From Minisyncoccota bacterium (GTDB lineage Bacteria > Patescibacteriota > Minisyncoccia > Phycocordibacterales > UBA9973), in assembly GCA_041650615.1 (NCBI GenBank), contig JBAZKU010000001.1:91763-155762 (forward strand): a stretch of DNA of 64,000 nucleotides, in the 5' to 3' direction. Positions 6,688-59,672 of the stretch are shown here, in pieces. Under the pieces are notes generated by a model. It was given only the letters and a program-made list of their open reading frames with translations, did no database searches and was not told the origin of the DNA. The number at the start of each line of letters is the position of its first letter. Position 1 is the first letter of the stretch. Both the position numbers and the translations under genes were made by a program.

Positions 6688-8415
6688 ATGAATAATGCTA
6701 GTGAAAAGAAAATATGTCAAAACTGTCATGCTGAATTTACCATTGAGCCTGAAGATTTTAAATTTTATGAAAAAATAAAAGTTCCACCACCGACTTTTTG
6801 TCCTGAATGCCGAACGGTTCGGCGTTTATGCTGGAGAAATGAAATGTCTCTTTTTAAGAGAAAATGTGATGCAGAAGGACATGACGAAAATGTTATTACC
6901 ATCTATCACCCCGACGAAAAACTCACAGTATATGATATAAAATCTTGGTGGGGAGATAAATGGAATGCTGTTTTACACGGAAAAGATTATGACTTCTCCA
7001 AACCATTTTTTCAGCAATGGAAAGAGTTGCGCGACAGCATCCCGCTTCAATGTCTTTCGAATTCAAAAGCAACAAATAGCGATTATTGCAATGTTGCCGA
7101 AGAAAGTAAAGATAGTTATATGTCTTCAGCTTCCTGGAAAATAGAAAAGACATTTTATTCAAATAGGATAGGAGAAACCAAAGAATCTTCAGATCTTTAC
7201 GTAGTTCATAAGTCTGAGCTTTGTTATGAAGATATATTTTGCACGGATTGTTATCATACTTTGTATTCCCTAAAGTGCAAAAATTGTGTAGATTCATATT
7301 TTTTGTATGATTGTAACGGTTGCATAGATTGTTTCGGATGTAGTAATCTTCGAAGTAAGTCATATTGCATGTGGAATGAACAGCTTACAAGGGAAGAATA
7401 TATGAACCGTTTGGCGAAACTGGATCTTAAAAGTTACAAAACGATACTTGAATCAAAAAAGAAATTTGACGAGCTTTACCTAAAATCAATTCATCGTTTT
7501 GCCAACCAGATTAGAATAATAAATTCTACCGGCGATAATCTTGATGGAGCAAAGAACTGTAAGGCATGTTTTGATACATTTGACCAAGTGGAAGATTGTA
7601 AATATTCTCATTGGAACATACGCGTGAAAGATGCATATGATTCAGGCCCAGGGGGTGGAGAAGGAGAATTGATGTATGAAATATTTGACACTGGACTGGG
7701 TAATTTTCGCAATTTATTTACTAATGTAGTTTATAGTTCTAATGACATTGAATATTCTTTTTATTGTTATGGTTGCTCATATTTATTTGGATGTATCGGT
7801 ATAAGAAATAAAAATTATTGCATTTTAAATAAACAATATACAAAAGAATCCTTCGAGGAACTCAGGACAAAAATCAAAGAGCAGATGAATGAAATGCCAT
7901 ATATTGATAAAAGAGGAATTGTCTATAAATACGGAGAATTTTTTCCAGCTGAAATTTCTCCATTTTGCTACAATGAAACTCAAGCGCAAGATTATTTTCC
8001 ATTAACCAAAGAAGAAGCGCTTAAGAGAGGGTATAGATGGCGGGATAGAAAAACTAGTGATTATGTAACGACAATACAGGCCGAAGATCTTCCAGATAGC
8101 TTGGATGATACTCCAGATTCTATTACTGAAGAGATTATAGGTTGCTTGCATAAAGGAAAATGTAAAGATCGCTGTTTAGGGGCCTTTAAAATAACAGAGA
8201 ACGAGTTTAGATTATATCACCAACTCGGAGTACCACTGCCACGCCTTTGTTTTATTTGTCGTCACGAAGCCAGATTAAGAAAACGCAACCCTATGAAATT
8301 ATGGCGCCGAAAGTGTATGAAACCTGGTTGTTCCAATGAATTTGAAACAACTTACGCTCCCGATAGGCCGGAAATAATTTACTGCGAGAGTTGTTATAAT
8401 AAAGAGGTGTATTAG
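6688..8415 (+). CDS. Cys-rich multi-zinc-ribbon protein, paralog B
   Basis: 575 aa with the same N-terminal CxNC..CPECR ribbon and the same conserved C-terminal domain as the ORF at 162. Confidence 0.85.
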   Translation: MNNASEKKICQNCHAEFTIEPEDFKFYEKIKVPPPTFCPECRTVRRLCWRNEMSLFKRKCDAEGHDENVITIYHPDEKLTVYDIKSWWGDKWNAVLHGKDYDFSKPFFQQWKELRDSIPLQCLSNSKATNSDYCNVAEESKDSYMSSASWKIEKTFYSNRIGETKESSDLYVVHKSELCYEDIFCTDCYHTLYSLKCKNCVDSYFLYDCNGCIDCFGCSNLRSKSYCMWNEQLTREEYMNRLAKLDLKSYKTILESKKKFDELYLKSIHRFANQIRIINSTGDNLDGAKNCKACFDTFDQVEDCKYSHWNIRVKDAYDSGPGGGEGELMYEIFDTGLGNFRNLFTNVVYSSNDIEYSFYCYGCSYLFGCIGIRNKNYCILNKQYTKESFEELRTKIKEQMNEMPYIDKRGIVYKYGEFFPAEISPFCYNETQAQDYFPLTKEEALKRGYRWRDRKTSDYVTTIQAEDLPDSLDDTPDSITEEIIGCLHKGKCKDRCLGAFKITENEFRLYHQLGVPLPRLCFICRHEARLRKRNPMKLWRRKCMKPGCSNEFETTYAPDRPEIIYCESCYNKEVY

Positions 8416-8451
8416 TAAAAATTAATGAACGAAGTGAATATAATTTTTTTA

Positions 8452-8514
8452 ACCCTGTTAAATAATTTTTTATAAAAATTGTTCAAAGGACATTTAACAG
8501 GGTAATGATTTTAA
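8452..8514. repeat. 12-bp perfect inverted repeat ACCCTGTTAAAT / ATTTAACAGGGT with a 39-nt loop between paralogs B and C
   Basis: Read directly. Confidence 0.6.
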
Positions 8515-8542
8515 TACTCATTTCTTTCATTTAAAATCAATT

Positions 8543-10318
8543 ATGCAAGCTGAAACAAAAAATTGTCAGAATTGTAAAAAGGATTTCGTGATTGAACCGG
8601 AAGATTTTAAATTTTACGAAAAAATAAAAGTTCCTCCACCGACCTGGTGTCCGGAGTGTAGGCTTATTCGGCGGCTTGTCTATCGTGAAGATAGACCTCT
8701 GTATAAAGATAAATGTGATAAATGCGGTAAAGATATTATAAGTATTTTTTCTCCAGGAAATCCTTTTGTAGTTTATTGTCAACCTTGTTGGTTTGGAGAT
8801 TCCTGGGATGGAAAAGATTATGGTAGAGATTATGATTTTTCAAAACCGTTTTTTGAACAATTTTATGAATTACAAAAAGTTGTTCCTAACCAGGCCACTG
8901 GTTCAAAAAATTCAGAAAATTGTAATTACTCAAATGGTAATATTCGTTGCAAGAATTGCACTTTAACCTTTGACGGTTATGAATCAATTAACTGTTACAA
9001 CTGTCAAACCCCTGGTTTTGTTCGTGATTCAATAGATTCAGATATTTTAATAAATGGTGATCATTGTTATGAGACCGTAAATTCAAATAATGTGTATAAT
9101 ACAAGATTTACTTATTTTTCTAATGATTGTTTAGATTCCTCTTTTCTTTTTAATTGTATGGGATGTTCAAATTGTTTTTGTTGTGTGAATTTAAGAAATC
9201 AAAAGTATCAAATTTTTAATAAACAATACACAAAAGAGGAATATAGAAAAGAAATAGAAAAATGGGATTTGGGAAGTTATGAAATTACCCAAGAGGCAAA
9301 AGAGAAATTCTGGAAATTTTGCAGTAAAATTCCCAGACGCTTTTCTTTAATTGTAAATTCTAAGAACGTTACAGGTGAGGATATAAAAAATACAAAAAAT
9401 TGTCAAAATTGTTTTTCTACCCTTATGGGTGTAGAAAATTGTAAATACATATTACTTTGTGGTTTATTATTGAAAGACAGTTATGATGTTACCTTAGGTG
9501 GGGGTACTTCAGAACTTTATTATGAAAATTCCGGCGGAATGCAGTCTCAAAGATGTTTTTTTGGTCGTGCCCCTTATAATTCAAAAGATATTGAATATTC
9601 GGAAAAAGTTTACAATTGTTCAAATTGTTTTGGCTGCACAAAATTAAAGAATAAACAATATTGTATCTTAAATAAACAATATACAAAAGAAGAGTATGAA
9701 AAATTAATTCCTAAAATTAAAAAACACATGGATGATATGCCTTATATTGATAAAAAAGGCAGAACCTATAGATATGGCGAATATTTTCCAAGTAAATTTT
9801 CTTTGTGGGCATACAATGAAACGTGGGCGCAAAAATATTTCCCTTTGACAAAAAAAGAAGCATTGGAAAAAGGTTTTAACTGGTATGACGAAGAAGGGAG
9901 AGATTATAAAATAACAATTAAAGCACAAAATTTACCGGACAATATTGTAGATGTCCCCGATTCTATTTTAGAAGAAATTATAGAGTGCGAACATAAAGGA
10001 ACTTGCAATGAACAATGCACAACAGCCTTTCGTATATTACCCAATGAATTGCAATTTTACAGACAAATGAATTTGGCTTTACCTCATTTATGTCCGAGTT
10101 GTCGTTATGGGCAACGTATTAAAAAGAAAAATCCACCGAGATTATGGCATAGAAAATGTATGTGTAATGGGGTAGAATCAGAAGGAGGTATTTATAAAAA
10201 TACTATTAAACATTCTCATGGGGACGGTGAGTGTAAAAACGAGTTTGAGACGGCGATAGGGCCGGAGAGAAAAGAAATAGTATATTGCGAGAAGTGTTAT
10301 CAAGCTGAATTTGTATGA
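8543..10318 (+). CDS. Cys-rich multi-zinc-ribbon protein, paralog C
   Basis: 591 aa with NCQNCKKDFVIEPEDFKFYEKIKVPPPTWCPECR at the N-terminus and the family C-terminal domain. A -10-like TAAAAT lies 6 nt upstream of the ATG. Confidence 0.85.
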   Translation: MQAETKNCQNCKKDFVIEPEDFKFYEKIKVPPPTWCPECRLIRRLVYREDRPLYKDKCDKCGKDIISIFSPGNPFVVYCQPCWFGDSWDGKDYGRDYDFSKPFFEQFYELQKVVPNQATGSKNSENCNYSNGNIRCKNCTLTFDGYESINCYNCQTPGFVRDSIDSDILINGDHCYETVNSNNVYNTRFTYFSNDCLDSSFLFNCMGCSNCFCCVNLRNQKYQIFNKQYTKEEYRKEIEKWDLGSYEITQEAKEKFWKFCSKIPRRFSLIVNSKNVTGEDIKNTKNCQNCFSTLMGVENCKYILLCGLLLKDSYDVTLGGGTSELYYENSGGMQSQRCFFGRAPYNSKDIEYSEKVYNCSNCFGCTKLKNKQYCILNKQYTKEEYEKLIPKIKKHMDDMPYIDKKGRTYRYGEYFPSKFSLWAYNETWAQKYFPLTKKEALEKGFNWYDEEGRDYKITIKAQNLPDNIVDVPDSILEEIIECEHKGTCNEQCTTAFRILPNELQFYRQMNLALPHLCPSCRYGQRIKKKNPPRLWHRKCMCNGVESEGGIYKNTIKHSHGDGECKNEFETAIGPERKEIVYCEKCYQAEFV

Positions 10319-10476: not shown

Positions 10477-11982
10477 ATGCCGAAAGCAAATCGGGTGCAA
10501 ATAATCAAATACGGTCCGCCTCCGCCAGAATTGCCGGTGTTTGGAAAAGTTAAGCCGGAAGAGGCTTCTTTTATTGGACGTACCAATTATGTCGCTTCTC
10601 TTGAAGAAAAGAAATTTATTTTCGGTATTAAACGCATAGACCGCAGACGACATCTTTATATTGTTGGAAAATCCGGAGTTGGAAAAAGTAAATTACTTGA
10701 GCTTCTTATGCGTCAAGATATAACCTATGGTCATGGTTTGTGTTTTATTGACCCGCACGGAGATGTCATAGAAGCTATGCTTGATTACATACCTAAAGAA
10801 CGCATAGAAGATGTTTGCATGATAGACCCAGGAGATGTTGACTTTCCGGCTTCTTTCAATCCGCTAGCCAATGTTGACCCGATGTTTAAATTTCAATTGA
10901 CTCAAGGATTGATTGAAGTTTTACAGAAACAATTCGGAGCCAACTGGACGCCTCGTTTGGAACACGTTTTTCGTTTTACTTGCTTGGCTTTGCTTGATTA
11001 TCCGCATGCTACGATGCGCGGAATGATTTCAATGCTGACAGACAGAAATTACAGACAGAAAGTGGTTGAATATATTACCGACGATATGGTCAAAAGATTC
11101 TTCGCTATAGAATTCGCCGACTGGTCCGAGAAATTTGATACGGATGCTATTATTCCGCTGGTCAACAAACTTGGGCAATTTTTATCCGACCCATTACTGC
11201 GAAATATTTTCGGTCAGAAACAAAATAAAATAGATATAAGCGAATTGATGGACCAAGGCAAACTGATTTTCATAAATCTTTCAAAAGGACGTATTGGGGA
11301 AGAAAATTCAAGCTTCTTCGGTTCAATGTTTTTGACCAAAATAAAACAAGCAGGAATGGAGCGGGCGACTATTCCCGAAGAAGAACGCCGAGATTTTTAT
11401 TTATACATAGATGAGTTTCATAACATTGTTACCCAAACATTTGAAAATATTTTATCTGAAGCTAGAAAATATGCTCTCAATCTTACAATCGCTCACCAAT
11501 ATATCGGTCAACTTATTCCGCAAGTACAACACGCAGTGCTTGGAAATACCGGAAGCTTGATTTGTTTCAGAGTCGGGGGAGAGGACGCAGTTAAATTGAA
11601 ACCGGAATTTGAGCCATTATTCGGTGTTAAAGATATGATTAATTTGGCAGTAGCGGAATTTTATATCAAAATGACGATTGACGGGGAATCTTATGATCCA
11701 TTTTCGGCGGAAACTCTGCGGGTCTTGCCTCCAACCCATGTTTCTTATCGAAAAGAAATCATCGAGGCTTCACGTAGAAAGTATTCAATATCAAAAGATG
11801 ATGCGCAGAAACTAATAGAAGAGGAAGAAGCATCAATTATCCGAAGCGCGGAAGAGAAAGCAATTATAGAAGGTAAGGGAAAGAAAAAAGAAGGCGAAGA
11901 AGAGACAGGAGAAAATAAAGAGGAAAATAAAAAAGAAGAAGTAAAAGGTAAGGTTTCTCAAGAGGCCGAACCTATGATATAA
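10477..11982 (+). CDS. FtsK/HerA/TraD-like P-loop ATPase, paralog 2 (Glu/Lys-rich C-terminal tail)
   Basis: 501 aa with Walker A IVGKSGVGKS, DPHGD and Walker B FYLYIDEFHNI; collinear with the ORF at 4537. Confidence 0.75.
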   Translation: MPKANRVQIIKYGPPPPELPVFGKVKPEEASFIGRTNYVASLEEKKFIFGIKRIDRRRHLYIVGKSGVGKSKLLELLMRQDITYGHGLCFIDPHGDVIEAMLDYIPKERIEDVCMIDPGDVDFPASFNPLANVDPMFKFQLTQGLIEVLQKQFGANWTPRLEHVFRFTCLALLDYPHATMRGMISMLTDRNYRQKVVEYITDDMVKRFFAIEFADWSEKFDTDAIIPLVNKLGQFLSDPLLRNIFGQKQNKIDISELMDQGKLIFINLSKGRIGEENSSFFGSMFLTKIKQAGMERATIPEEERRDFYLYIDEFHNIVTQTFENILSEARKYALNLTIAHQYIGQLIPQVQHAVLGNTGSLICFRVGGEDAVKLKPEFEPLFGVKDMINLAVAEFYIKMTIDGESYDPFSAETLRVLPPTHVSYRKEIIEASRRKYSISKDDAQKLIEEEEASIIRSAEEKAIIEGKGKKKEGEEETGENKEENKKEEVKGKVSQEAEPMI

Positions 11983-11991
11983 ATAAAAATT

Positions 11992-13086
11992 ATGAGTAAA
12001 GATTATTACAATATTTTGGGCGTAAATAAAGGCGCTTCTAAAGATGAAATAAAGAAGGCTTTTTATAAATTGGCGCATAAATATCATCCTGATAAAAAAG
12101 AGGGGAATGAAGCAAAATTTAAAGAAGTAAACGAAGCTTACCAAGTGCTTTCGGATGACACTAAACGTTCAAAATACGACCAATTTGGGTCCGGTTTTGA
12201 AAATATGGGGCAAGGATATGGAGGAGCCAGACAGAGTGGTTTTGAAGGTTTCGATTTTTCTGGTTTTCAAAATGGCGGTGCGGATTTTGACTTTGGTAAT
12301 TTAAATGATATTTTTAGTGATTTCTTTACTGGTGGAATGGGTGGGGGAAGTAGAAGAGAAGCGAGACGCGGACGTGATATCTCTACTGAAATACAGATTT
12401 CTTTTTCTGAATCTGTTTTTGGAACCAGTAGAAAAATTTTAATTACTAAAACCTCAAATTGTGCCGTTTGCGAAGGTTCCGGCGCAAAACCCGGTACCAA
12501 AATGGAAACTTGTAAGTATTGCAATGGTCAGGGAAAAATTCGCGAAGCAAAAAGAACGATTCTTGGTACTATCTCGAGCACAAAAATTTGCGAGGAATGT
12601 CTGGGTTCCGGAGAAGTACCGAAAGAAAAATGCGAAAATTGTAAAGGCAAAGGAGTATTGCGCCGTGAAGAAGAAATTTCTGTAAATATACCAGCCGGAA
12701 TGCGAGATGGAGAAATGATTAGAATGTCGGGAATGGGCGAAGCGGTTTCAAAGGGAACTGCCGGAGACTTGTATATAAAAGTAAATGTAGCAGCGCACCC
12801 TGTATTTAAACGAGAGGGAAATGACTTAGTAATGAATCTGGAATTAAAATTATCCGATGCTATGCTCGGTACGGAATATCCAATCCAGACTTTGGATGGA
12901 GAAATAAGCGTCAAAATTCCGGAAGGCGTATCTATCAACGAAATTCTTCGAGTAAAGGGAAAGGGCGTACCTATTTCAAAAAGCAAGCGCGGGGATTTGT
13001 TAATTAAGCTCAAAATAAAACTTCCTAAAAAACTTTCCCATAAATCCCGCGAGATTATTGAACAGCTCAAAAAAGAGGGGATATAA
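11992..13086 (+). CDS. dnaJ: chaperone DnaJ
   Basis: J-domain YHPDK, a G/F-rich region and four CxxCxGxG zinc motifs; 364 aa. Confidence 0.95.
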
Positions 13087-13165
13087 AATACCTGTCCCGT
13101 ACTAAATTTTTGTGTAAAACAAATGACCACTATTATTAACAGTTTAAAATTTTAGTACTGGGATG
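13084..13165 (+). repeat. stop-to-start intercistronic palindromic element, type II (CCCGTACTAAATTTTT ... AAAATTTTAGTACTGGGATG)
   Basis: Begins at the dnaJ TAA and ends with the ATG of the next gene at 13163. About 90% identical to the reverse complement of 55014..55093. Confidence 0.8.
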
Positions 13166-18659: not shown

Positions 18660-19307
18660 TTATTGTCTATTTTTTAGGGCGTTTTTGAGAGTATCGTTAT
18701 CGGAATATTCAAGTTCAGTGCCGGTGGAGAGACCCCTGCCTAGTGAAGAAATCTTTATGCCTAAAGGTTCAGCAACAGGTTTTAACTGATTGCGAACATA
18801 TAAATCGGTATGATTACCTTGCGGACTTAAGGAAAAAGCTAGAACAATTTCCCCGCCTCGCGTCGACGAGTCTCCACGAGTCGAGGCGGGTTTTAAAAAA
18901 TCTCTTTTTATTTTTTCTATCAGCTCATTAATTCTTATTCTTTTATTTGTATTTTTTTCAACAATCGGCACCAGTCCTCCCAAAATAAAATATTTGCCGT
19001 TATAAACCCTGCTGGCATTTATACTTTCAAAATCGGAATCTTTTTCCACCACCATCAGAGTGGAAGAATCAATACTTTTATCGGCGCAAATTTCGCACAC
19101 TTTTTCTTTTTTGGATTCAGATATAAAAAATCTAAAACATTCAGAACATTGCATGGTATCTTTTCTTAATTCTTTAATTAAATCGGATAAATTAGAAGTG
19201 TAATCTAAATTTTTAGCCATCAAAAAATAAACAAAACGTTTTGCTTGTCTTTCTCCAATACCGGGAAATTCTTTAAAAATTTCAGTTAATTTTTCTATGG
19301 TGTTCAT
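18660..19307 (-). CDS. recR: recombination protein RecR
   Basis: HhH FPGIGERQAKR, a C4 zinc finger CSECFRF...CEICAD and a Toprim region. Carries the in-frame 39-bp palindrome (PASTRGDSSTRGG). Confidence 0.9.
   Translation of the reverse strand: MNTIEKLTEIFKEFPGIGERQAKRFVYFLMAKNLDYTSNLSDLIKELRKDTMQCSECFRFFISESKKEKVCEICADKSIDSSTLMVVEKDSDFESINASRVYNGKYFILGGLVPIVEKNTNKRIRINELIEKIKRDFLKPASTRGDSSTRGGEIVLAFSLSPQGNHTDLYVRNQLKPVAEPLGIKISSLGRGLSTGTELEYSDNDTLKNALKNRQ
18852..18890. repeat. 39-bp GC-rich palindromic element (CCCGCCTCG...CGAGGCGGG) inserted in frame in recR
   Basis: Differs by 1 nt from the reverse complement of 32375..32413; related to 33353..33391. Confidence 0.85.
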
Positions 19308-22076: not shown

Positions 22077-22144
22077 ATCCCGTTAGAAAATCAACGGGCT
22101 TGTATGAAAGATGAATTTTATTAGTTTAATTTTCTAATGGGATG
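22077..22144 (+). repeat. type I palindromic element (ATCCCGTTAGAA ... TTCTAATGGGATG) in the aspS leader
   Basis: The right arm ends in the aspS ATG at 22142. Confidence 0.75.
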
Positions 22145-40013: not shown

Positions 40014-40086
40014 TGAATCCCGTTAGAAATTCAACTGACGGGGAGTATAGTATAATTATTAATTAATATAAATTTCTAACGGGATG
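40014..40086 (+). repeat. type I palindromic element
   Basis: TGAATCCCGTTAGAAATTC ... AATTTCTAACGGGATG; its ATG opens a 48-codon ORF. Confidence 0.8.
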
Positions 40087-40711: not shown

Positions 40712-41164
40712 TTATCTACACGAACTAGAAAGCACATAACCTGCACTCTCCGCTTCTGTAGATGTTGCAAAATAAATTCTATTTTCTTGTTTGATAGTTT
40801 TTCCAGCAGAACAACTTATGGAATAATATTTACTCCCCTTACTTGAAGCAAAAAAATTCCCTGAAGTTGATTTTGACGTATTTATTGAATTTTGGTCTAT
40901 AGAACTTATTACATTGGCTTCTTGACCCTCATATTCTCCTGCCTGCGCAGGCAGGATTTTTATACCTGAGTTTGTGTCACTTTTAGATAGTCTACCTAGC
41001 TCAAATGAGCCTAAACCAACCAAAATTATGATAATAATGACCAAAATATCCTTACCCTTATCGCTTTCTACGAATTGCTTGACCCCGTTAAAGACAGGGG
41101 GTCGCTGCGAGCCCTCGCGGTCTTTAACGGGGTTGATTTTTTTTGAGGGATAGTGTAAACTCAT
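40712..41164 (-). CDS. hypothetical secreted/anchored protein carrying two in-frame palindromic insertions
   Basis: 150 aa with an N-terminal TM. Contains the 18-bp palindrome (LPAQAG) and a 50-bp palindrome at 41083..41132. Confidence 0.6.
   Translation of the reverse strand: MSLHYPSKKINPVKDREGSQRPPVFNGVKQFVESDKGKDILVIIIIILVGLGSFELGRLSKSDTNSGIKILPAQAGEYEGQEANVISSIDQNSINTSKSTSGNFFASSKGSKYYSISCSAGKTIKQENRIYFATSTEAESAGYVLSSSCR
40938..40955. repeat. 18-bp palindrome CCTGCCTGCGCAGGCAGG, in frame (LPAQAG)
   Basis: One of four copies. Confidence 0.85.
41083..41132. repeat. ~50-bp GC-rich palindrome CCCCGTTAAAGAC ... GTCTTTAACGGGG inside a CDS
   Basis: Read directly. Confidence 0.6.
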
Positions 41165-47629: not shown

Positions 47630-48337
47630 TTATTTTAAATTCTCGCGATGATGACGATTTGCGATAATTTGTTTATCGCTTTCTATCATCCCGTCTTTTA
47701 TTTTAATAATGCGATTGGCGAATTCAGCTGTTTGAGTTTCATGCGTTACCAGCACCACAGTATGGCCTTTGTCATTAAGTGATTCAAGTATTTCCATCAC
47801 TTGCAAGCCCGATTGTGAATCAAGATTACCGGTTGGTTCATCGGCAAAAATAATATCCGGCTTAGTCACCAGCGCTCGAGCAATAGCCACGCGCTGTTTT
47901 TGCCCGCCGGAAAGTTTACCTGCCGCGGTATATAATTTTTCTTTAAGTCCGACCGATTGAACAGCTTCTTCCACTAGTGTGGCGCGTTTCTTTGGAGAAA
48001 TGTCGGAATAAAGAAGCGGTATTTCAACATTTTCATATACCGTCAATCGAGAAAGCAGGTTGAATGACTGGAAGACGAAACCCATGTCTTTATTTCGTGC
48101 ATAAGCAAGTTCCTTGTCTGTCATCTCATCAATACTTTTTCCTTGAAATTTATAAGAGCCTCCAGTGGGTCGGTCAAGAAAACTTAATATATGAAGAAGA
48201 GTTGATTTACCTGAACCCGAAGGACCCATAATAGAAACAAATTCTCCTTTTTCAACAGAAAAAGTTACCCCGCACAAAGCTTTTGTCGGTGTTTCTTCTT
48301 CCCAATATTCCTTTTTTAAATCATTTACCTCTATCAT
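47630..48337 (-). CDS. ABC transporter ATP-binding protein (MacB/LolD-like)
   Basis: [24 protein letters not shown] and [11 protein letters not shown]. Confidence 0.9.
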
Positions 48338-48459
48338 CCCGTTAGAGGCAGGTCGCGGTCTTCCACTTCCTTGCCATTTATTGGTTATTATAATAATTTT
48401 TTACTAAATATTAATTTTATTGAATCCAAATGAAGCGACCGCGGCCTCTAACGGGATCA
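48335..48459 (-). repeat. type I stop-to-start palindromic element (adaptor gene to ABC ATPase, minus strand)
   Basis: The minus-strand stop TGA at 48457..48459 lies in the left arm; the start ATG at 48335..48337 lies in the right arm. Confidence 0.85.
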
Positions 48460-51669: not shown

Positions 51670-52764
51670 TTACTGAACAGCTTTATCTTGCCCCAAAATC
51701 TTCACCAACGCAAGCTCCAACGGAAGCTCGGAAACAAAAGCTCGATCTATGTCATTATAAGCCTCAAGGAGAATTGAAAGCGCTGGAGAACGAAGAATAC
51801 CTTCTTTGTCGGACTTCACTAAACCCTTCAAGAATTCCAAATCTTCTTCTCCTAAATCCCCTACCATTCCTGCCTGCGCAGGCAGGTCTTTTTCTAATTT
51901 AGGTGCATATTTTAAAATTATAGCCATACGAAACTTCTCTATGATTAATTTGGAATAAAGTTTCATATCTAAACTTTCTCCTGCCGCTTTGCGAATAGTC
52001 ATAATCCCCTCTTCTAAATTTTTATTAGCGATAGCGGAAATGAAATCATTTACCAAGACTGTTTTCGGCGCGCCGGTTATTTTTTCTATATCTTCTCGTT
52101 TTACCAGCCTCGCCGAGTCTAGGCGGGTTTTTTTATCTCTACCGGAGAAATTTAAAACTTTTTGCAACGTGCCTAAGGCATCGCGGAATGAACCATCGCC
52201 CAAAATAGCTATCAATTCAGCTCCGCCGGCATCCAATTCAAAGCCTTCTTTTTTAGAAACTTCCAAAACCATTTTTTTAGAAGCAATATCGGAAGCCTTT
52301 CTAAAAGTGAAAACCTGACAGCGGGAGATAATGGTTTCCGGCACTTTATGAATTTCGGTTGTGGCTAAAATAAAAATAACATGCTTTGGCGGTTCTTCTA
52401 AGGTCTTCAGCAAAGCACCCCAAGCATCCTTGGAGAGCATATGTACTTCATCTATAATATAAACCTTATATTTTGAATCAAAAGGCAGAACCCTCGCCCC
52501 ATCCCGAAGCGCTCTGATATCTTCAATTCCCCTATTAGAAGCGGCATCTATTTCATAAAGGTCATTTTCTGAAACCCCTATATCTTTGGCAAAAATTCTA
52601 GCCACAGAAGTTTTGCCTGTGCCCCTAGAGCCCACAAAAAGGTAAGCATGCGAAACTTTATTAGTCTCTACGGAGCTTTCCAGCACTTTTACTATATGGT
52701 CTTGCCCGATGACTTCCTGAAAGGTTTTAGGTCTGTATTTTCTATATAATGCCAAATCATGCAT
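51670..52764 (-). CDS. dnaX: DNA polymerase III subunit gamma/tau (short form)
   Basis: YRPKTF..VIGQ, GSRGTGKTS, EIDAASNRGIEDIR, DEVHMLS, SRCQ. Contains the 18-bp palindrome (LPAQAG). Confidence 0.9.
   Translation of the reverse strand: MHDLALYRKYRPKTFQEVIGQDHIVKVLESSVETNKVSHAYLFVGSRGTGKTSVARIFAKDIGVSENDLYEIDAASNRGIEDIRALRDGARVLPFDSKYKVYIIDEVHMLSKDAWGALLKTLEEPPKHVIFILATTEIHKVPETIISRCQVFTFRKASDIASKKMVLEVSKKEGFELDAGGAELIAILGDGSFRDALGTLQKVLNFSGRDKKTRLDSARLVKREDIEKITGAPKTVLVNDFISAIANKNLEEGIMTIRKAAGESLDMKLYSKLIIEKFRMAIILKYAPKLEKDLPAQAGMVGDLGEEDLEFLKGLVKSDKEGILRSPALSILLEAYNDIDRAFVSELPLELALVKILGQDKAVQ
51869..51886. repeat. 18-bp palindrome CCTGCCTGCGCAGGCAGG, in frame in dnaX
   Basis: Read directly. 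Confidence 0.85.
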
Positions 52765-52800
52765 GGTTTGATTATAACCCGTGATAAAAGAAATTCAAAG

Positions 52801-52870
52801 AATTTTAAGAGTCGTGGGTTCCCTGTCCTCACGGACTCCGAGGGCGAAGGCTCAGAAATTTTTTGAATTT
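52801..52870 (-). repeat. GC-rich promoter-proximal element (reverse-complement copy) upstream of dnaX
   Basis: Sense with respect to dnaX. TTATAAT lies 6 nt before the dnaX ATG. Confidence 0.85.
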
Positions 52871-54037: not shown

Positions 54038-54063
54038 AAATCTTCCAAACTAAGAAAATTAAA

Positions 54064-54133
54064 AATTTTAAGAGTCGTGGGTCCCCTGTCCTCACGGACT
54101 CCGAGGGCGAAGGCTCAGAAATTTTTGAATTTT
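54064..54133 (-). repeat. GC-rich promoter-proximal element (reverse-complement copy) upstream of dus
   Basis: Read directly. Confidence 0.85.
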
Positions 54134-54146
54134 TTAGTTTGATATT

Positions 54147-55016
54147 TTACTTGAATTTGTAATATACCTTATTCCCAAACCGAAGGTCAATATAAAGGAG
54201 TGAAGAATATTTATTTTTAAAATCTGATTTAAAGGGTTCCGTGCCAAGCACCGTTTGCAGATTTTCTGCCACTTTTTCAAAATCGGAATCTGTTTTTAAA
54301 ATTATTTTCGGTCCCAACTGTGATTCTGATGTGGAAGAGAGAAACATTTCTATATCTCCATTATCTTGTACATAAAATATTACCGGTTTTATTGCAATTT
54401 TTTCAAGTGTTTCTTTAAGTAATATTAATTTGCCAAAAATTGGTTGGGAAAAATAAGAGCCAAATGAAGCAGTTCCATAAAACTTCAAATAAACTTCTCC
54501 GGAGAAATAAGGAGCCTCATCAAAAATATAACCGCTATCATCCATAAAATAACATTTATTATTGTTTTGAATTTCAATCTCTGAATTATTTAACTCTGGT
54601 GGCATAGTACCACAATATGTATATAGCGCGGTTCTCTCGGTTAAAGAAATATCCAATGTTTGCAGATTTTTGATACTAATGGAAATATCTTTCAATCTTT
54701 TGAATTTATCAGCCAATTCTTTTTTTATTTCCCCTTTGGGATAAAGTAAAAAATTTGTTTTTGGCAAAACCCATAAAAAGTTACCGGCAATTTTTTCTTT
54801 TGCAATATCTTCAATCATTTTGGTTTCCACTACCTTGTTGCCCGAAATTTGGATATTATTTATATTTACTTTTTCCCATTTAGAGAGAAAAGACAGACCA
54901 ACCAAAACTAAAATAAGCAAAAAAACCAAAAAAAATATTTTTCTTCTTAAAATTTTACGTTGTTTTCTTTTTAATTCTAAAAGACGAGGAGAATTTAAAA
55001 CATTTTGATTTTTCAT
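54147..55016 (-). CDS. FtsQ/DivIB-like cell-division protein (N-terminal TM plus POTRA-like region)
   Basis: 289 aa. Similarity to the FtsQ POTRA pattern (..ISGN....E......G.N........L...P.IK...I.......L.I.V.ER.A) is weak. Confidence 0.4.
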   Translation of the reverse strand: MKNQNVLNSPRLLELKRKQRKILRRKIFFLVFLLILVLVGLSFLSKWEKVNINNIQISGNKVVETKMIEDIAKEKIAGNFLWVLPKTNFLLYPKGEIKKELADKFKRLKDISISIKNLQTLDISLTERTALYTYCGTMPPELNNSEIEIQNNNKCYFMDDSGYIFDEAPYFSGEVYLKFYGTASFGSYFSQPIFGKLILLKETLEKIAIKPVIFYVQDNGDIEMFLSSTSESQLGPKIILKTDSDFEKVAENLQTVLGTEPFKSDFKNKYSSLLYIDLRFGNKVYYKFK

Positions 55017-55093
55017 CCCAGTACTAAAATTTTAAGTTGTTAATAATCGTGGTCATTTCTCTTACTCAAAAATTTAGTACGGGACAGGTATTA
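55014..55093 (-). repeat. type II stop-to-start palindromic element (serS to FtsQ-like gene)
   Basis: The serS stop TAA (55091..55093 on the minus strand) lies in the left arm; the downstream ATG (55014..55016) ends the right arm. Confidence 0.85.
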
Positions 55094-57407: not shown

Positions 57408-59672
57408 ATGAAATTATTAATCGTTGAATCGCCATCAAAAGCAAAGACCATTGAGAAATATCTCGAGGGTGTTTATACTGTGCGCGCATCTGTCGGGCAT
57501 ATCCGCGATTTACCGAAATCAAATAAGCAAGCGATAGACATAGAAGGCGGGTTCATACCGCATTATGAAGTTTCCAAAGGCAAGGAAAAAATTATACATG
57601 AACTCCGATCTCTTGGAGAAAAAGCTAGTGAAATACTTTTAGCCACAGACCCTGATCGCGAAGGAGAAGCGATAGCTTGGCATATTGAAGAATTATTGAA
57701 TAAAGATCCCGAAGGAAAGCAAGTTTCCTACGGGGCGGGTAAAAAAAAAGCTTCTATAAAAAGAGTTAGATTTTATGAAATAACCGAGGAAGCAGTAAAA
57801 GAAGCCTTGAAGTACCCTGAAGAAATTGATATGAAGCTAGTAAAAGCTCAAGAAGCTAGACGAGTATTAGACAGACTTGTCGGTTATGATCTTTCGGGAC
57901 TTATTTGGAAAAAAGTACGTTATGGACTTTCTGCAGGGCGAGTTCAATCCCCTGCGCTTCGCATAATAATGGAACGCGAACGTGAGATTCGCGCTTTTGT
58001 TCCGGAACAGTATTGGAAATTATTCGGTCTCTTTGAAACTCAAAAAAAGGGAAAATTGACCCTTTTTTGTTCAGAAGAACCTAAAAATGAAAAATTGGTT
58101 GAAAAAATACTTGAAGAAGGGAAAAAAGGAAATTGGCTGGTAAAAGAAGTAAAAGAATCCGAACAAAAAAGAATTCCTCGGGCTCCATTCACTACTTCTA
58201 CTTTGCAACAAACAGCAAGCTCACGGCTTGGTTATTCCCCTTCTAGAACAATGCAAATAGCGCAAAAACTTTATGAAGCTGGACATATTACATATATGAG
58301 AACGGATAGTACAAATCTGTCCTCGGCCGCGCAAGCGCAAATCGTTTCCCTTATTAATAAAAAATATGGAAATGAATATGCTTTACCACGAGCTTATAAG
58401 GCTAGATCTAAAAATGCCCAAGAAGCGCATGAAGCAATTCGCCCGACCCATATAGAAAATTTAGGAGCTGGTACTGAGGAGCAGCAAAGACTTTACAAAT
58501 TGATTTGGGAACGCGCTGTATCTTCACAAATGGCTGATGCAAAATTATTAAAAACAAAAATAAACGCAAATATTTCTCCAGATGCACCTATTCCTGATTT
58601 TACAGCTACCGGTTCACGGATTCTTTTTCCCGGATGGCTTCTTGTGGATAAAGATAGTGTGGGAGAGGACATAGAATTGCCGGAAGTAAAGAAAGGAGAA
58701 AAATTAAAATTGTTGAATCTGATAAAAGAAGAAAAATTTACTGAGCCACCTAATAGATACAGTGAAGCGGGCCTAATAAAGGAACTGGAGGCGAGAGATA
58801 TAGGCCGGCCATCTACATATGCTTCCATAATGAAAACACTGGAAGACAGAGAATATGTAAAAAAAGAAGGTAAAACTCTCTACCCTACCGATGTCGGCGA
58901 AGTCGTATCTGATTTTCTGGAAAAATATTTTGCTAATTATATTTCCGATACTTTTACAGCAGAAATGGAAGATGAATTGGATGAAATTTCCAGAGGTGAA
59001 CGCGAATATGAAAAAACACTTAAAGATTTTTATGGACCATTTTCCAAAGATGTAAAATCAAAAGAAAAATTAGAAAAAGCGACTAATTTGGGCGATGCCC
59101 CGGAAAATATAAAATGTCCAAAATGTGGAAGTAAAATGATTATTAAACTTTCCCGCGGAGGCAAGTTTTATTCTTGTTCAAGATATCCTGATTGCGACGG
59201 CGCATTAATGATAGATGGAACGGAGTTAAAGGGTCCGAAAGAAACAGGAGAAATGTGTCCGCTATGCGGCCTGCCTGCGCAGGCAGGAGAAAAAAAGAAA
59301 AAAAACTATGGTGGTAAACTTATTATCCGAGAAAGACGCGATGGAAGCGGAACTTTTATTTCTTGTTCACGTTATCCAAAATGCAAGTTTATTAAAAAAG
59401 ATGAAGCAGAAGAAGCCAAAAAAAGGACAGGTATTATTTGTCCTTTGTGTAAAAAGGGAGATATAACTGAACGGCGCGGAAGGTTCGGTATATTTTATTC
59501 TTGTTCAAATTATCCCGATTGTAAATTTGCCATGAAAGCAAAACCTACCGGTAGAATATGCGACAAATGCGGTTCTTTAATGATGGAGGGAACAAAAACT
59601 ATCCCCGAAAGATGCAGTAACAAGTCTTGCTCAAACCATAATCCTCATAAAATATCAAAAATTGATAAATAA
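57408..59672 (+). CDS. topA: DNA topoisomerase I with four C-terminal C4 zinc ribbons
   Basis: Toprim MKLLIVESPSKAKTI and the active-site region. The 18-bp palindrome sits between zinc ribbons. Confidence 0.95.
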   Translation: MKLLIVESPSKAKTIEKYLEGVYTVRASVGHIRDLPKSNKQAIDIEGGFIPHYEVSKGKEKIIHELRSLGEKASEILLATDPDREGEAIAWHIEELLNKDPEGKQVSYGAGKKKASIKRVRFYEITEEAVKEALKYPEEIDMKLVKAQEARRVLDRLVGYDLSGLIWKKVRYGLSAGRVQSPALRIIMEREREIRAFVPEQYWKLFGLFETQKKGKLTLFCSEEPKNEKLVEKILEEGKKGNWLVKEVKESEQKRIPRAPFTTSTLQQTASSRLGYSPSRTMQIAQKLYEAGHITYMRTDSTNLSSAAQAQIVSLINKKYGNEYALPRAYKARSKNAQEAHEAIRPTHIENLGAGTEEQQRLYKLIWERAVSSQMADAKLLKTKINANISPDAPIPDFTATGSRILFPGWLLVDKDSVGEDIELPEVKKGEKLKLLNLIKEEKFTEPPNRYSEAGLIKELEARDIGRPSTYASIMKTLEDREYVKKEGKTLYPTDVGEVVSDFLEKYFANYISDTFTAEMEDELDEISRGEREYEKTLKDFYGPFSKDVKSKEKLEKATNLGDAPENIKCPKCGSKMIIKLSRGGKFYSCSRYPDCDGALMIDGTELKGPKETGEMCPLCGLPAQAGEKKKKNYGGKLIIRERRDGSGTFISCSRYPKCKFIKKDEAEEAKKRTGIICPLCKKGDITERRGRFGIFYSCSNYPDCKFAMKAKPTGRICDKCGSLMMEGTKTIPERCSNKSCSNHNPHKISKIDK
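59270..59287. repeat. 18-bp palindrome CCTGCCTGCGCAGGCAGG, in frame in topA (LPAQAG)
   Basis: Read directly. Confidence 0.85.

Follow-up and report, generated by a model that had tools for sequence, protein, structure and literature searches.

A start-codon-abutting hairpin repeat at gene junctions of Nomurabacteria and other Paceibacteria

Why should two gene junctions of one bacterial genome be filled, from stop codon to start codon, by nearly the same hairpin? The question arises in a 64,000-nucleotide (nt) stretch of DNA from a Minisyncoccota bacterium (GCA_041650615.1, contig JBAZKU010000001.1, positions 91,763-155,762 of the forward strand; hereafter the window), for which an earlier note had described two copies, about 90% identical, of a repeat called type II, one between dnaJ and the next gene and one between serS and an FtsQ-like gene. 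A repeat search of the window recovers both as a 79-nt inverted match with 92% complementarity (13087-13165 versus 55014-55092), indicating that each copy is co-oriented with its own genes, on opposite strands, and both occupy the entire gap between the upstream stop codon and the downstream ATG (Table 1). We find that they belong to a lineage-wide family of hairpin elements of about 73 nt that are inserted flush with start codons. Open reading frames (ORFs) were called mechanically; Pfam identifies DnaJ upstream of copy 1 and, around copy 2, SerRS on the upstream side and a protein of POTRA/FtsQ type on the downstream side. The 196-amino-acid (aa) protein encoded after copy 1 has no Pfam match; it is conserved in several hundred Paceibacteria proteins, and its N-terminus, MLPE, is common to orthologues without the element. 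Each window copy forms one long sense-strand hairpin, with fold energies of -16.7 kcal/mol (z -2.7) for copy 1 and -22.2 kcal/mol (z -5.1) for copy 2, the antisense values being -15.4 (z -1.7) and -15.2 kcal/mol (z -2.3), respectively.

The extent of the element is given by orthologous junctions that lack it. At the dnaJ junction the relative L241 is empty and reads GGGGATATAA-AAT-ATGCTTCCTGAA (...AAAAAAGAGGGGATATAA-AAT-ATGCTTCCTGAA), the corresponding window sequence being ...AAAAAAGAGGGGATATAA-AAT-[ACCTGT...CTGGG]-ATGCTTCCTGAA, and in other relatives 1-10 nt separate dnaJ from the 196-aa gene. The serS-ftsQ junction lies in a dprA-serS-ftsQ-dus order conserved in five relatives, with gaps of 1-46 nt; L243 reads TAG-T-ATG versus TAA-T-[73 nt]-ATG in the window, and L006 shares the filled state. 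These empty and filled sites therefore define a unit of 73 nt, precisely inserted and flush with the ATG. The stop-to-start architecture described earlier stands, but the unit itself is ACCTGT...CTGGG, the stop codon, a spacer of 1-3 nt and the ATG belonging to the host. No target-site duplication is found at the two sites, where comparison of empty and filled states gives TAA-AAT|ATG and TAG-T|ATG, and the left flanks are variable. Filled/empty polymorphism also occurs at about 40 other orthologous junctions, the empty ones reading TAATATG, TAATTATG, TAAATG, TAATTTATG or ATGA overlaps. The same junction can carry one loop subtype (A, described below) in one species and another (B) in a second, and in L237 a B copy precedes the same 196-aa gene behind a different upstream gene. 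Decayed copies are rare: an nhmmer search found a handful of 5'- or 3'-truncated remnants (L068 531-573(-), with the same in L165 and L197; L214 about 2190-2290; L122 about 2009(-)), the 5'-deleted ones retaining loop, 3' arm and ATG, and one 3'-deleted remnant retaining only the 5' arm and decoy hairpin. No long element with type II ends was seen in the 1.84 Mb of loci, to which the search was confined. The suggestion that such elements express a general organising principle of the junctions of this genome is not supported, as insertion affects some junctions only and the orthologous junctions of relatives are tight stop-start arrangements with gaps of 1-14 nt. By default, ordinary operon junctions in the window are overlaps or gaps of a few nt, accompanied elsewhere by leaderless promoters, and start-abutting hairpins occur at only 8 of its ~57 junctions, two of them type II and six of the related CCCGTTAGA family.

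A pattern specifying the arms only (CCCGTACTAAA N30-60 TTTAGTACNGGG), run on species-representative public genomes, matched at least 118 stretches; among the matches listed there are at least 122 copies in at least 65 assemblies, with 1-7 copies per assembly, and all those listed are metagenome-assembled genomes of Nomurabacteria, Paceibacterota or Patescibacteria. Type II is thus not mainly a feature of the junctions of this genome, as first proposed, but of a lineage. Since the first pattern had fixed arms, a second scan, of metagenomes, was seeded on the commonest loop only (TTTTGATTACGGGRYATAA). It matched at least 118 metagenome stretches, confirming that the loop is conserved in other genomes, and 91 distinct intact copies were obtained among the matches listed. 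In this loop-seeded sample the unconstrained arms are 95-100% conserved per position and ATG directly follows the element in 91/91 copies; in the arms-seeded sample ATG follows directly in 117/122 and GTG in 2/122, so that ATG stands immediately 3' in 208/213 copies when both samples are pooled. The 5' flank has the consensus A-C-Y-T-G-T (122-copy sample), and hairpins read in the sense direction lie at an ORF start in 111/122 cases, those read in reverse in 0/122. All these copies are phylogenetically related and not independent, and p-values given below are accordingly indicative only. Loop identity between genomes (0.79) is close to that within them (0.80-0.84), which argues that the whole sequence is constrained and not recently copied; with the nearest relatives of both window copies found in other genomes, recent intragenomic duplication and concerted evolution were rejected. 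A phage origin was likewise rejected, as viral contigs gave no match to the family. Rfam returned only two tRNAs over the window at the gathering threshold, and E-value scans of a B copy, an A copy and the type I repeat of the window gave only noise (E >= 0.04). Full-text literature searches, by topic and by arm sequences, retrieved no earlier description and only chance primer matches; the type II family is apparently undescribed.

Aligned copies have the consensus form 5'-ACYTGT-CCCGTACTAAA...TTTAGTAC(Y)GGG-3', about 73 nt, with the RNA layout ACYUGU / CCCGUACUAAA-U-UUUU(G) ... loop ... (U)AAAA-U-UUUAGUAC-Y-GGG / AUG. The stem of ~20-22 base pairs (bp) is AU-rich, contains a U.U mismatch and a bulge, and is clamped by CCCG/(Y)GGG; over a 123-sequence alignment, 97.7% of the cells of a 20-pair helix hold standard pairs. 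Its closing pairs, UGU:AUG, extend into the start codon, with pairing probabilities in the consensus of 0.99 for its A and 0.94 for its U. The base before CCCG (-1) pairs with the first base of the start codon (+1), as U-A in 121 copies and as C-G in the two that have the only GTG starts in the alignment, a covariation with Fisher p = 6e-7 over all copies (indicative, as these are related). A third GTG copy, in L145, likewise has C at -1; in L118, where the start position reads ATT, a compensating A restores an A:U pair, and L147 and L208 carry double compensatory changes within the arms. Departures from consensus pairing comprise 20 G.U against 6 A.C in the loop-seeded sample, and three consensus pairs are themselves sense-strand G.U. 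The pair-like variation and this sense-strand bias indicate that the structure is selected on the mRNA-sense strand. The paired stem and conserved loop proposed for the two window copies are therefore upheld by sense folding and by the family alignments, and their similarity extends, with pairing support, far beyond the two loci. An intrinsic terminator was rejected: in place of a GC-rich stem and a U tract there is an AU-rich stem with AUG and coding sequence after it. A naive scan for any hairpin abutting an ATG, taken as a general rule, was swamped by AT-rich chance stems; a stricter scan confines the start-abutting property to families with a CCCGT...ACGGG foot. This superfamily (foot CCCGU.../...ACGGG-AUG) comprises type II, the CCCGTTAGAR family with six window copies, and CCCGTACGAA.

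The loops fall into two discrete subtypes, of which A is the majority and B includes both window copies. Subtype A contains an internal UACGGGR able to pair with UGUCCCGUA, and the resulting decoy (UACGGGG) fold, at -13.7 kcal/mol versus -20.1 for the full hairpin, would free the AUG; its loop also holds a -10-like box, and A copies are found behind promoters as well. Subtype B is marked by AAAUGACCAY and by a fixed 10-codon mini-ORF, M[TV][TIN]I[IN][NK]NLKF, with a UAG that falls within the 3' arm, 7 nt ahead of the main AUG. The mini-ORF frame is present in 34/46 copies classed as B by regular expression (about 38 being canonical B on our own reading), and in two indel variants its stop is the UGA of an AUGA overlap. 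All B copies that carry the mini-ORF (37/37) follow an ORF, whereas 20/83 other copies do not (p = 4e-4, copies not being independent). An A-type variant in the metagenome loci L137, L226, L144 and L156 has a ~10-nt insertion in the 5' arm, CCCGTAACGGCTTCGCCTAAT replacing CCCGTACTAAAT, and is still flush with the ATG.

The genes downstream of type II copies include ftsA, pilC-like, obg, nusG, rpsB, rpsP, rpsN, rpsU, rplO, secY, gyrB, dnaB, clpB, lepA, pyrG, atp genes, ribE, folA, metK, murA, a sigma factor, ftsQ and ftsW. Because these housekeeping genes are unrelated they do not constitute a regulon, and a regulon or riboswitch leader was rejected on this heterogeneity and on the variable presence of the element at orthologous junctions. 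For essential genes (rpsB, gyrB, dnaB, secY, ftsA and others) the element makes up the entire upstream region, suggesting that it must permit initiation. A same-strand ORF lies upstream of 83/121 copies, its stop ending 7-10 nt before CCCG in 56/83, and some further upstream ORFs end within the 5' arm. In about 20 copies a -10 box, extended in most of them, ends 12-13 nt before CCCG, from which transcription would start at the A of ACYTGT. Beginning at a stop codon is thus not universal, about one sixth of copies lying behind a promoter instead. Leaderless-type starts also occur across the window at large (TGnTAnAAT, 6 nt before ATG; for example at 10477, 27616, 30457, 37279, 47628(-) and 52764(-)), and an extended -10 box, TGnTAnnnT, ends exactly 6 nt before ATG at 9/68 window ORF starts and 63/964 in the loci. 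Leaderless transcription is marked, as published, by a Pribnow box lying 6-8 nt from the start (PMC6028130). Motifs resembling the Shine-Dalgarno (SD) sequence show neither enrichment nor a peak at ORF starts in the window and the loci, and the fetched loci contain no 16S 3' end from which the anti-SD state could be read. Judging from these sequences, the host organisms appear to translate without ribosome-binding sites.

How, then, does a gene tolerate 73 nt of hairpin directly before its start codon? The most economical reading is that type II is a propagating module whose mRNA hairpin would link the AUG to the upstream stop codon, or to the transcript 5' end, and in this way let reinitiation or leaderless-type translation survive the insertion. 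We give this bridge a probability of roughly 40%, inferring from sequence both that the hairpin acts in translation and by what route. On this model the module would spread in Nomurabacteria/Paceibacteria genomes by precise insertion without target-site duplication, always landing immediately 5' of a start codon, either at a tight intra-operon stop-start junction or at the +1 of a leaderless gene. Transcribed in sense within the mRNA, it would fold into a long AU-rich hairpin with the start codon in its closing pairs. If the hosts initiate only at 5'-terminal AUGs or by reinitiation beside a stop codon, the stem would hold the upstream stop (5-14 nt before the stem) or the transcript 5' end against the AUG, and the 73-nt insert would thereby become topologically invisible. 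A terminating ribosome would reach the foot of the stem, melt the weak closing pairs and be able to reinitiate; in subtype B, which among copies with the mini-ORF occurs only behind ORFs, the mini-ORF could relay ribosomes, and in subtype A the internal decoy might pair with the 5' arm, freeing the AUG.

Several observations weigh against the bridge. The narrow stop-to-stem distance follows trivially from insertion at the ATG of an already tight junction, and the near-constancy of the arms leaves little covariation within them. Folding predicts a paired AUG, normally an obstacle to initiation. Coupling cannot apply to every copy, since no ribosome arrives from upstream at those next to a promoter, and the A-type decoy that might account for them is itself conjectural. 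The mini-ORF peptide lacks a clear codon-position pattern, and its ATG is changed to ATA in a few B-like copies. The near-invariant arms and loop exceed what bridging needs and point to a sequence-specific partner, which the bridge model does not name and which could be a nuclease, an RNA-binding protein or a recombinase. A broader formulation, that type II is a portable translation-initiation adaptor for an SD-less bacterium, whose hairpin is either cut at its 3' foot or shunts the ribosome to the AUG, we regard as possible but doubtful.

Cleavage is the best of the alternatives, although rather unlikely in our estimate. A putative hairpin-specific endoribonuclease would cut between GGG and AUG, turning operon-internal or leadered genes into leaderless mRNAs, the form translated by default in the host, and leaving the upstream mRNA with a protective 3' hairpin, in a manner likened to the tRNA punctuation of leaderless mitochondrial mRNAs or to stem-base cleavage of the Cas6/Csy4 type. 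Such RNA punctuation would cover both contexts, behind stops and behind promoters, by one mechanism and would do so better than the bridge, as it would the strong conservation of arms and loop. It would equally account for the zero spacing to ATG in 208/213 copies, the strict sense orientation, the tolerance of the element by essential genes, and the near-invariant stem foot and bulged Y common to the sibling families CCCGTTAGA and CCCGTACGAA, and it fits the leaderless, SD-less background. It needs neither the conserved UGU:AUG pairing nor the B-type mini-ORF, however, and to an already leaderless gene a promoter-proximal copy would add nothing unless it is a tolerated parasite; the nuclease is putative only, and Rfam contains no matching ribozyme or processing motif.

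The precise gain, loss and replacement (A versus B) of copies at the same junctions, without target duplication, would also be expected of purely selfish DNA of the REPIN or IS200/IS605 kind, in which a single-strand transposase or recombinase, host-encoded or since lost, recognises the hairpin foot and inserts the hairpin next to ATG/CAT, purifying selection leaving only insertions before starts and in a non-lethal orientation. The RNA hairpin would then be merely tolerated, with no further function. Several copies per genome, termini that are the most conserved part of the element, a foot shared by related families, the truncated remnants in L068, L214 and L122, and other palindromic insert families at neighbouring junctions, some in both orientations, are consistent with this reading. 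We consider it unlikely, since decayed copies are almost absent, loops are as conserved between as within genomes, unlike the neutral interiors of miniature inverted-repeat transposable elements (MITEs), and pairing departures favour the sense strand (G.U 20 versus A.C 6), whereas an ATG side serving as a fixed IS200/IS605-style target would make the antisense strand the active one. The element must moreover support the translation of essential genes, and the 1.84 Mb of loci yielded neither a longer element with these ends nor a transposase, for which no protein search was made.

An operator for a global RNA-binding regulator, gating the sequestered AUG in the manner of an iron-responsive element, would suit a conserved hairpin with a bulged pyrimidine, a conserved loop of two discrete types and an AUG held in the stem. 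This is very unlikely, as the genes downstream do not make up a coherent regulon and their set differs between species through insertion polymorphism, and the binding protein is hypothetical, none being known. We give almost no credence to a portable promoter cassette acting at the DNA level (the -10-like box of the A loop, TAAAAT in the 3' arm and TTGATT as -35): some A copies, such as those before ftsA, have a perfect TGnTATAAT in the loop, related CCCGTTAGA copies hold TGTTATAAT + 6 nt + ATG there and 5'-truncated copies retain loop and 3' arm, but the majority loop box, CATAAA, lacks the key T's, such a box is missing from B copies, the distances to TTGATT are unsuitable and the -10/-35 spacings are a misfit in most copies, and neither the covariation of the start-codon stem nor the zero spacing to ATG would be explained. 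A CsrA-like GGA site, initiator-tRNA mimicry, a bulge-helix-bulge (BHB) intron and an attC site were considered and dropped, no feature supporting them.

Comparison with known systems places the element among small repeats that move. ERIC sequences, reportedly treated by Hulton in 1991, De Gregorio in 2005 and Wilson and Sharp in 2006, resemble type II in being small imperfect palindromes in transcribed intergenic regions of operons, conserved across species, present or absent at orthologous junctions, without known transposase, and forming RNA hairpins that possibly affect neighbouring cistrons. They differ in their length (~127 bp), their occurrence in both orientations, not fixed to start codons, their SD-using enterobacterial hosts and their unrelated sequence. 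Correia elements (NEMIS of Neisseria) and MITEs share with type II the form of ~100-bp non-coding inverted repeats, multicopy, polymorphic in insertion and co-transcribed as hairpins. The hairpins of Correia elements are cut by RNase III. Correia elements have a TA target duplication, either orientation, a variable distance to genes and an IS-like origin; type II has no target duplication, strict orientation and zero spacing to ATG, with 111 sense copies at ORF starts and 0 reverse, a distribution that separates it from Correia and ERIC alike. Of the features that define MITEs, inverted-repeat arms (CCCGTACTAAA/TTTAGTAC(Y)GGG), small size and several copies are present and the target duplication is absent.

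Hairpin-based insertion without target duplication and vertical persistence that keeps the sequence conserved link type II to the REP/REPIN-RAYT and IS200/IS605 systems, as does insertion next to a fixed short sequence in the case of IS200/IS605 (for type II ATG, or CAT on the other strand). Like a REPIN, type II consists of two inverted arms that form a hairpin and lies outside genes in all cases, but a single hairpin spans the unit where REPIN and IS200/IS605 have two subterminal ones, copy number is low (1-7 per genome among the matches listed), wobble is biased towards the mRNA sense, and no GTAG-type REP head is visible in the consensus. Rickettsia palindromic elements (RPE) are likewise mobile palindromic repeats at gene-compatible sites in the small genomes of host-dependent bacteria; they lie in frame inside ORFs and are translated, whereas type II lies between a stop codon or transcription start and a start codon. 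Functional analogues, in which structured RNA separating two cistrons, or the 5' end from the AUG, is cut out or bypassed, include mitochondrial tRNA punctuation, T7 RNase III sites, the ribosome shunt of cauliflower mosaic virus (CaMV), T4 gene 60 bypass and rpmI-rplT unmasking. The likeness to shunting lies in a stop few nt before the stem foot and a landing site after it, and that to punctuation in the leaderless products; none of the analogues is known as a repeated, mobile, sequence-conserved bacterial element, and cleavage or shunting of type II is hypothetical. Lacking the defining marks of MITEs, Correia/ERIC, IS200/IS605 and Rfam families, type II is therefore filed as a variant among small palindromic mobile repeats, closest to the co-transcribed ERIC, Correia and REPIN repeats.

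In this lineage gene junctions act as hot spots at which palindromic inserts of several families are found (Table 1). Window copies of the CCCGTTAGA family precede an AsnRS/LysRS-type gene, TspO, FtsW, MurG, a 53-aa ORF (start 40084) and the gene at 47630-48337, and three of them contain an additional inner stem that is GC-rich, GCCGCGGTCGC/GACCGCGACC. Copies in other genomes share the ACTTGT leader of type II, and their loop (L025 4321, L026 6229) holds TGTTATAAT + 6 nt + ATG and a mini-ORF ending in a UGA that overlaps the main AUG. The type I repeat had been credited with the same architecture as type II; its three window copies, ~80 nt long, instead end 17-26 nt before ATG and lack GGGATG. 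One of these spacers is a leaderless promoter, GTTATAAT + 6 nt + ATG at 52764, and the gene after the copy ending at 32186 has its real start at the ATG at 32205. L243 and L244 have an empty ftsQ-dus junction; the window has type I there (54038-54146), and other genomes have unrelated palindromic inserts, a GC-rich one in L242 (2644-2806) and, in L245 (2671-2847) and L246 (2656-2816), the same ~150-nt element in opposite orientations. Perfect GC-rich palindromes of two families, CCCGCCTCG...CGAGGCGGG and TCCTGCCTGCGCAGGCAGG, occur in the window (18852-18890, 32375-32413, 33353-33391 and 52103-52131; also 40937-40961, 51868-51892 and 59269-59293), every one of them within a long ORF, and resemble in-frame insertions such as the RPE of Rickettsia. 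Paralogous genes at 162-1874, 6688-8415 and 8543-10318 (+) encode three proteins of 570-591 aa without Pfam match, stretches of the gene copies being 61-76% identical at the DNA level; the junction at 8416-8542 has its own hairpin, TTAACCCTGTTAAAT/ATTTAACAGGGTAA, and homologues of these proteins flank type II copies in L041, L059, L118 and L237.

Table 1. Start-abutting hairpin elements, their parts and type I repeats in the window (positions counted from its first letter).
Feature	Position	Strand	Basis
dnaJ stop TAA and host spacer AAT (outside the element)	13084-13086 and 13087-13089	+	L241 empty site
Type II element copy 1, subtype B, 73 nt: ACCTGT + CCCGTACTAAATTTTT ... AAAATTTTAGTAC-T-GGG	13090-13162	+	boundaries from L241 empty site
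Copy 1, 5' leader ACCUGU; UGU pairs with AUG 13163-13165 (U-A, G.U, U.G)	13090-13095	+	pair counts, -1:+1 covariation
Copy 1, 5' arm CCCGUACUAAAUUUUU	13096-13111	+	
Copy 1, loop mini-ORF AUG..UAG, MTTIINSLKF; stop in 3' arm, 7 nt before main AUG (translation predicted)	13123-13155	+	
Copy 1, 3' arm AAAAUUUUAGUAC-U-GGG, bulged U at 13159	13146-13162	+	
Start codon of conserved 196-aa gene; A and U within hairpin closing pairs	13163-13165	+	
serS stop TAA (55093-55091) and 1-nt host spacer T	55090-55093	-	L243 empty site TAG-T-ATG
Type II element copy 2, subtype B, 73 nt; orthologous to L006 serS-ftsQ copy	55017-55089	-	
Copy 2, loop mini-ORF MTTIINNLKF, stop UAG (predicted)	55024-55056	-	
Start codon of FtsQ-like (POTRA) gene	55014-55016	-	
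CCCGTTAGA family (CCCGTTAGAR...YTCTAA(A)CGGG-ATG), five copies	22079-22141, 30821-30922, 34798-34874, 35984-36105, 40019-40083	+	
CCCGTTAGA family, sixth copy	48338-48455	-	
Type I repeat, ~80 nt, 89-93% identical, co-oriented with genes	32106-32186 (+), 52790-52870 (-), 54055-54134 (-)		

Candidate Phyla Radiation (CPR) bacteria are uncultured and, to our knowledge, the manner in which they start translation is essentially unknown. With zero spacing to AUG in more than 200 copies, type II offers a sharp handle on this step. If the adaptor formulation were true, it would represent a hitherto undescribed mode of bacterial gene expression, borne by a start-codon-targeting mobile module. The element may in addition serve to mark true start codons in the annotation of Nomurabacteria, would account for intergenic gaps of 70-80 nt within compact operons, and could provide a compact cassette for studies of SD-independent initiation. 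Whatever reads it, be it a reinitiating or shunting ribosome, a hairpin-specific RNase or a start-codon-targeting recombinase, must be core to the gene expression or genome dynamics of this lineage.

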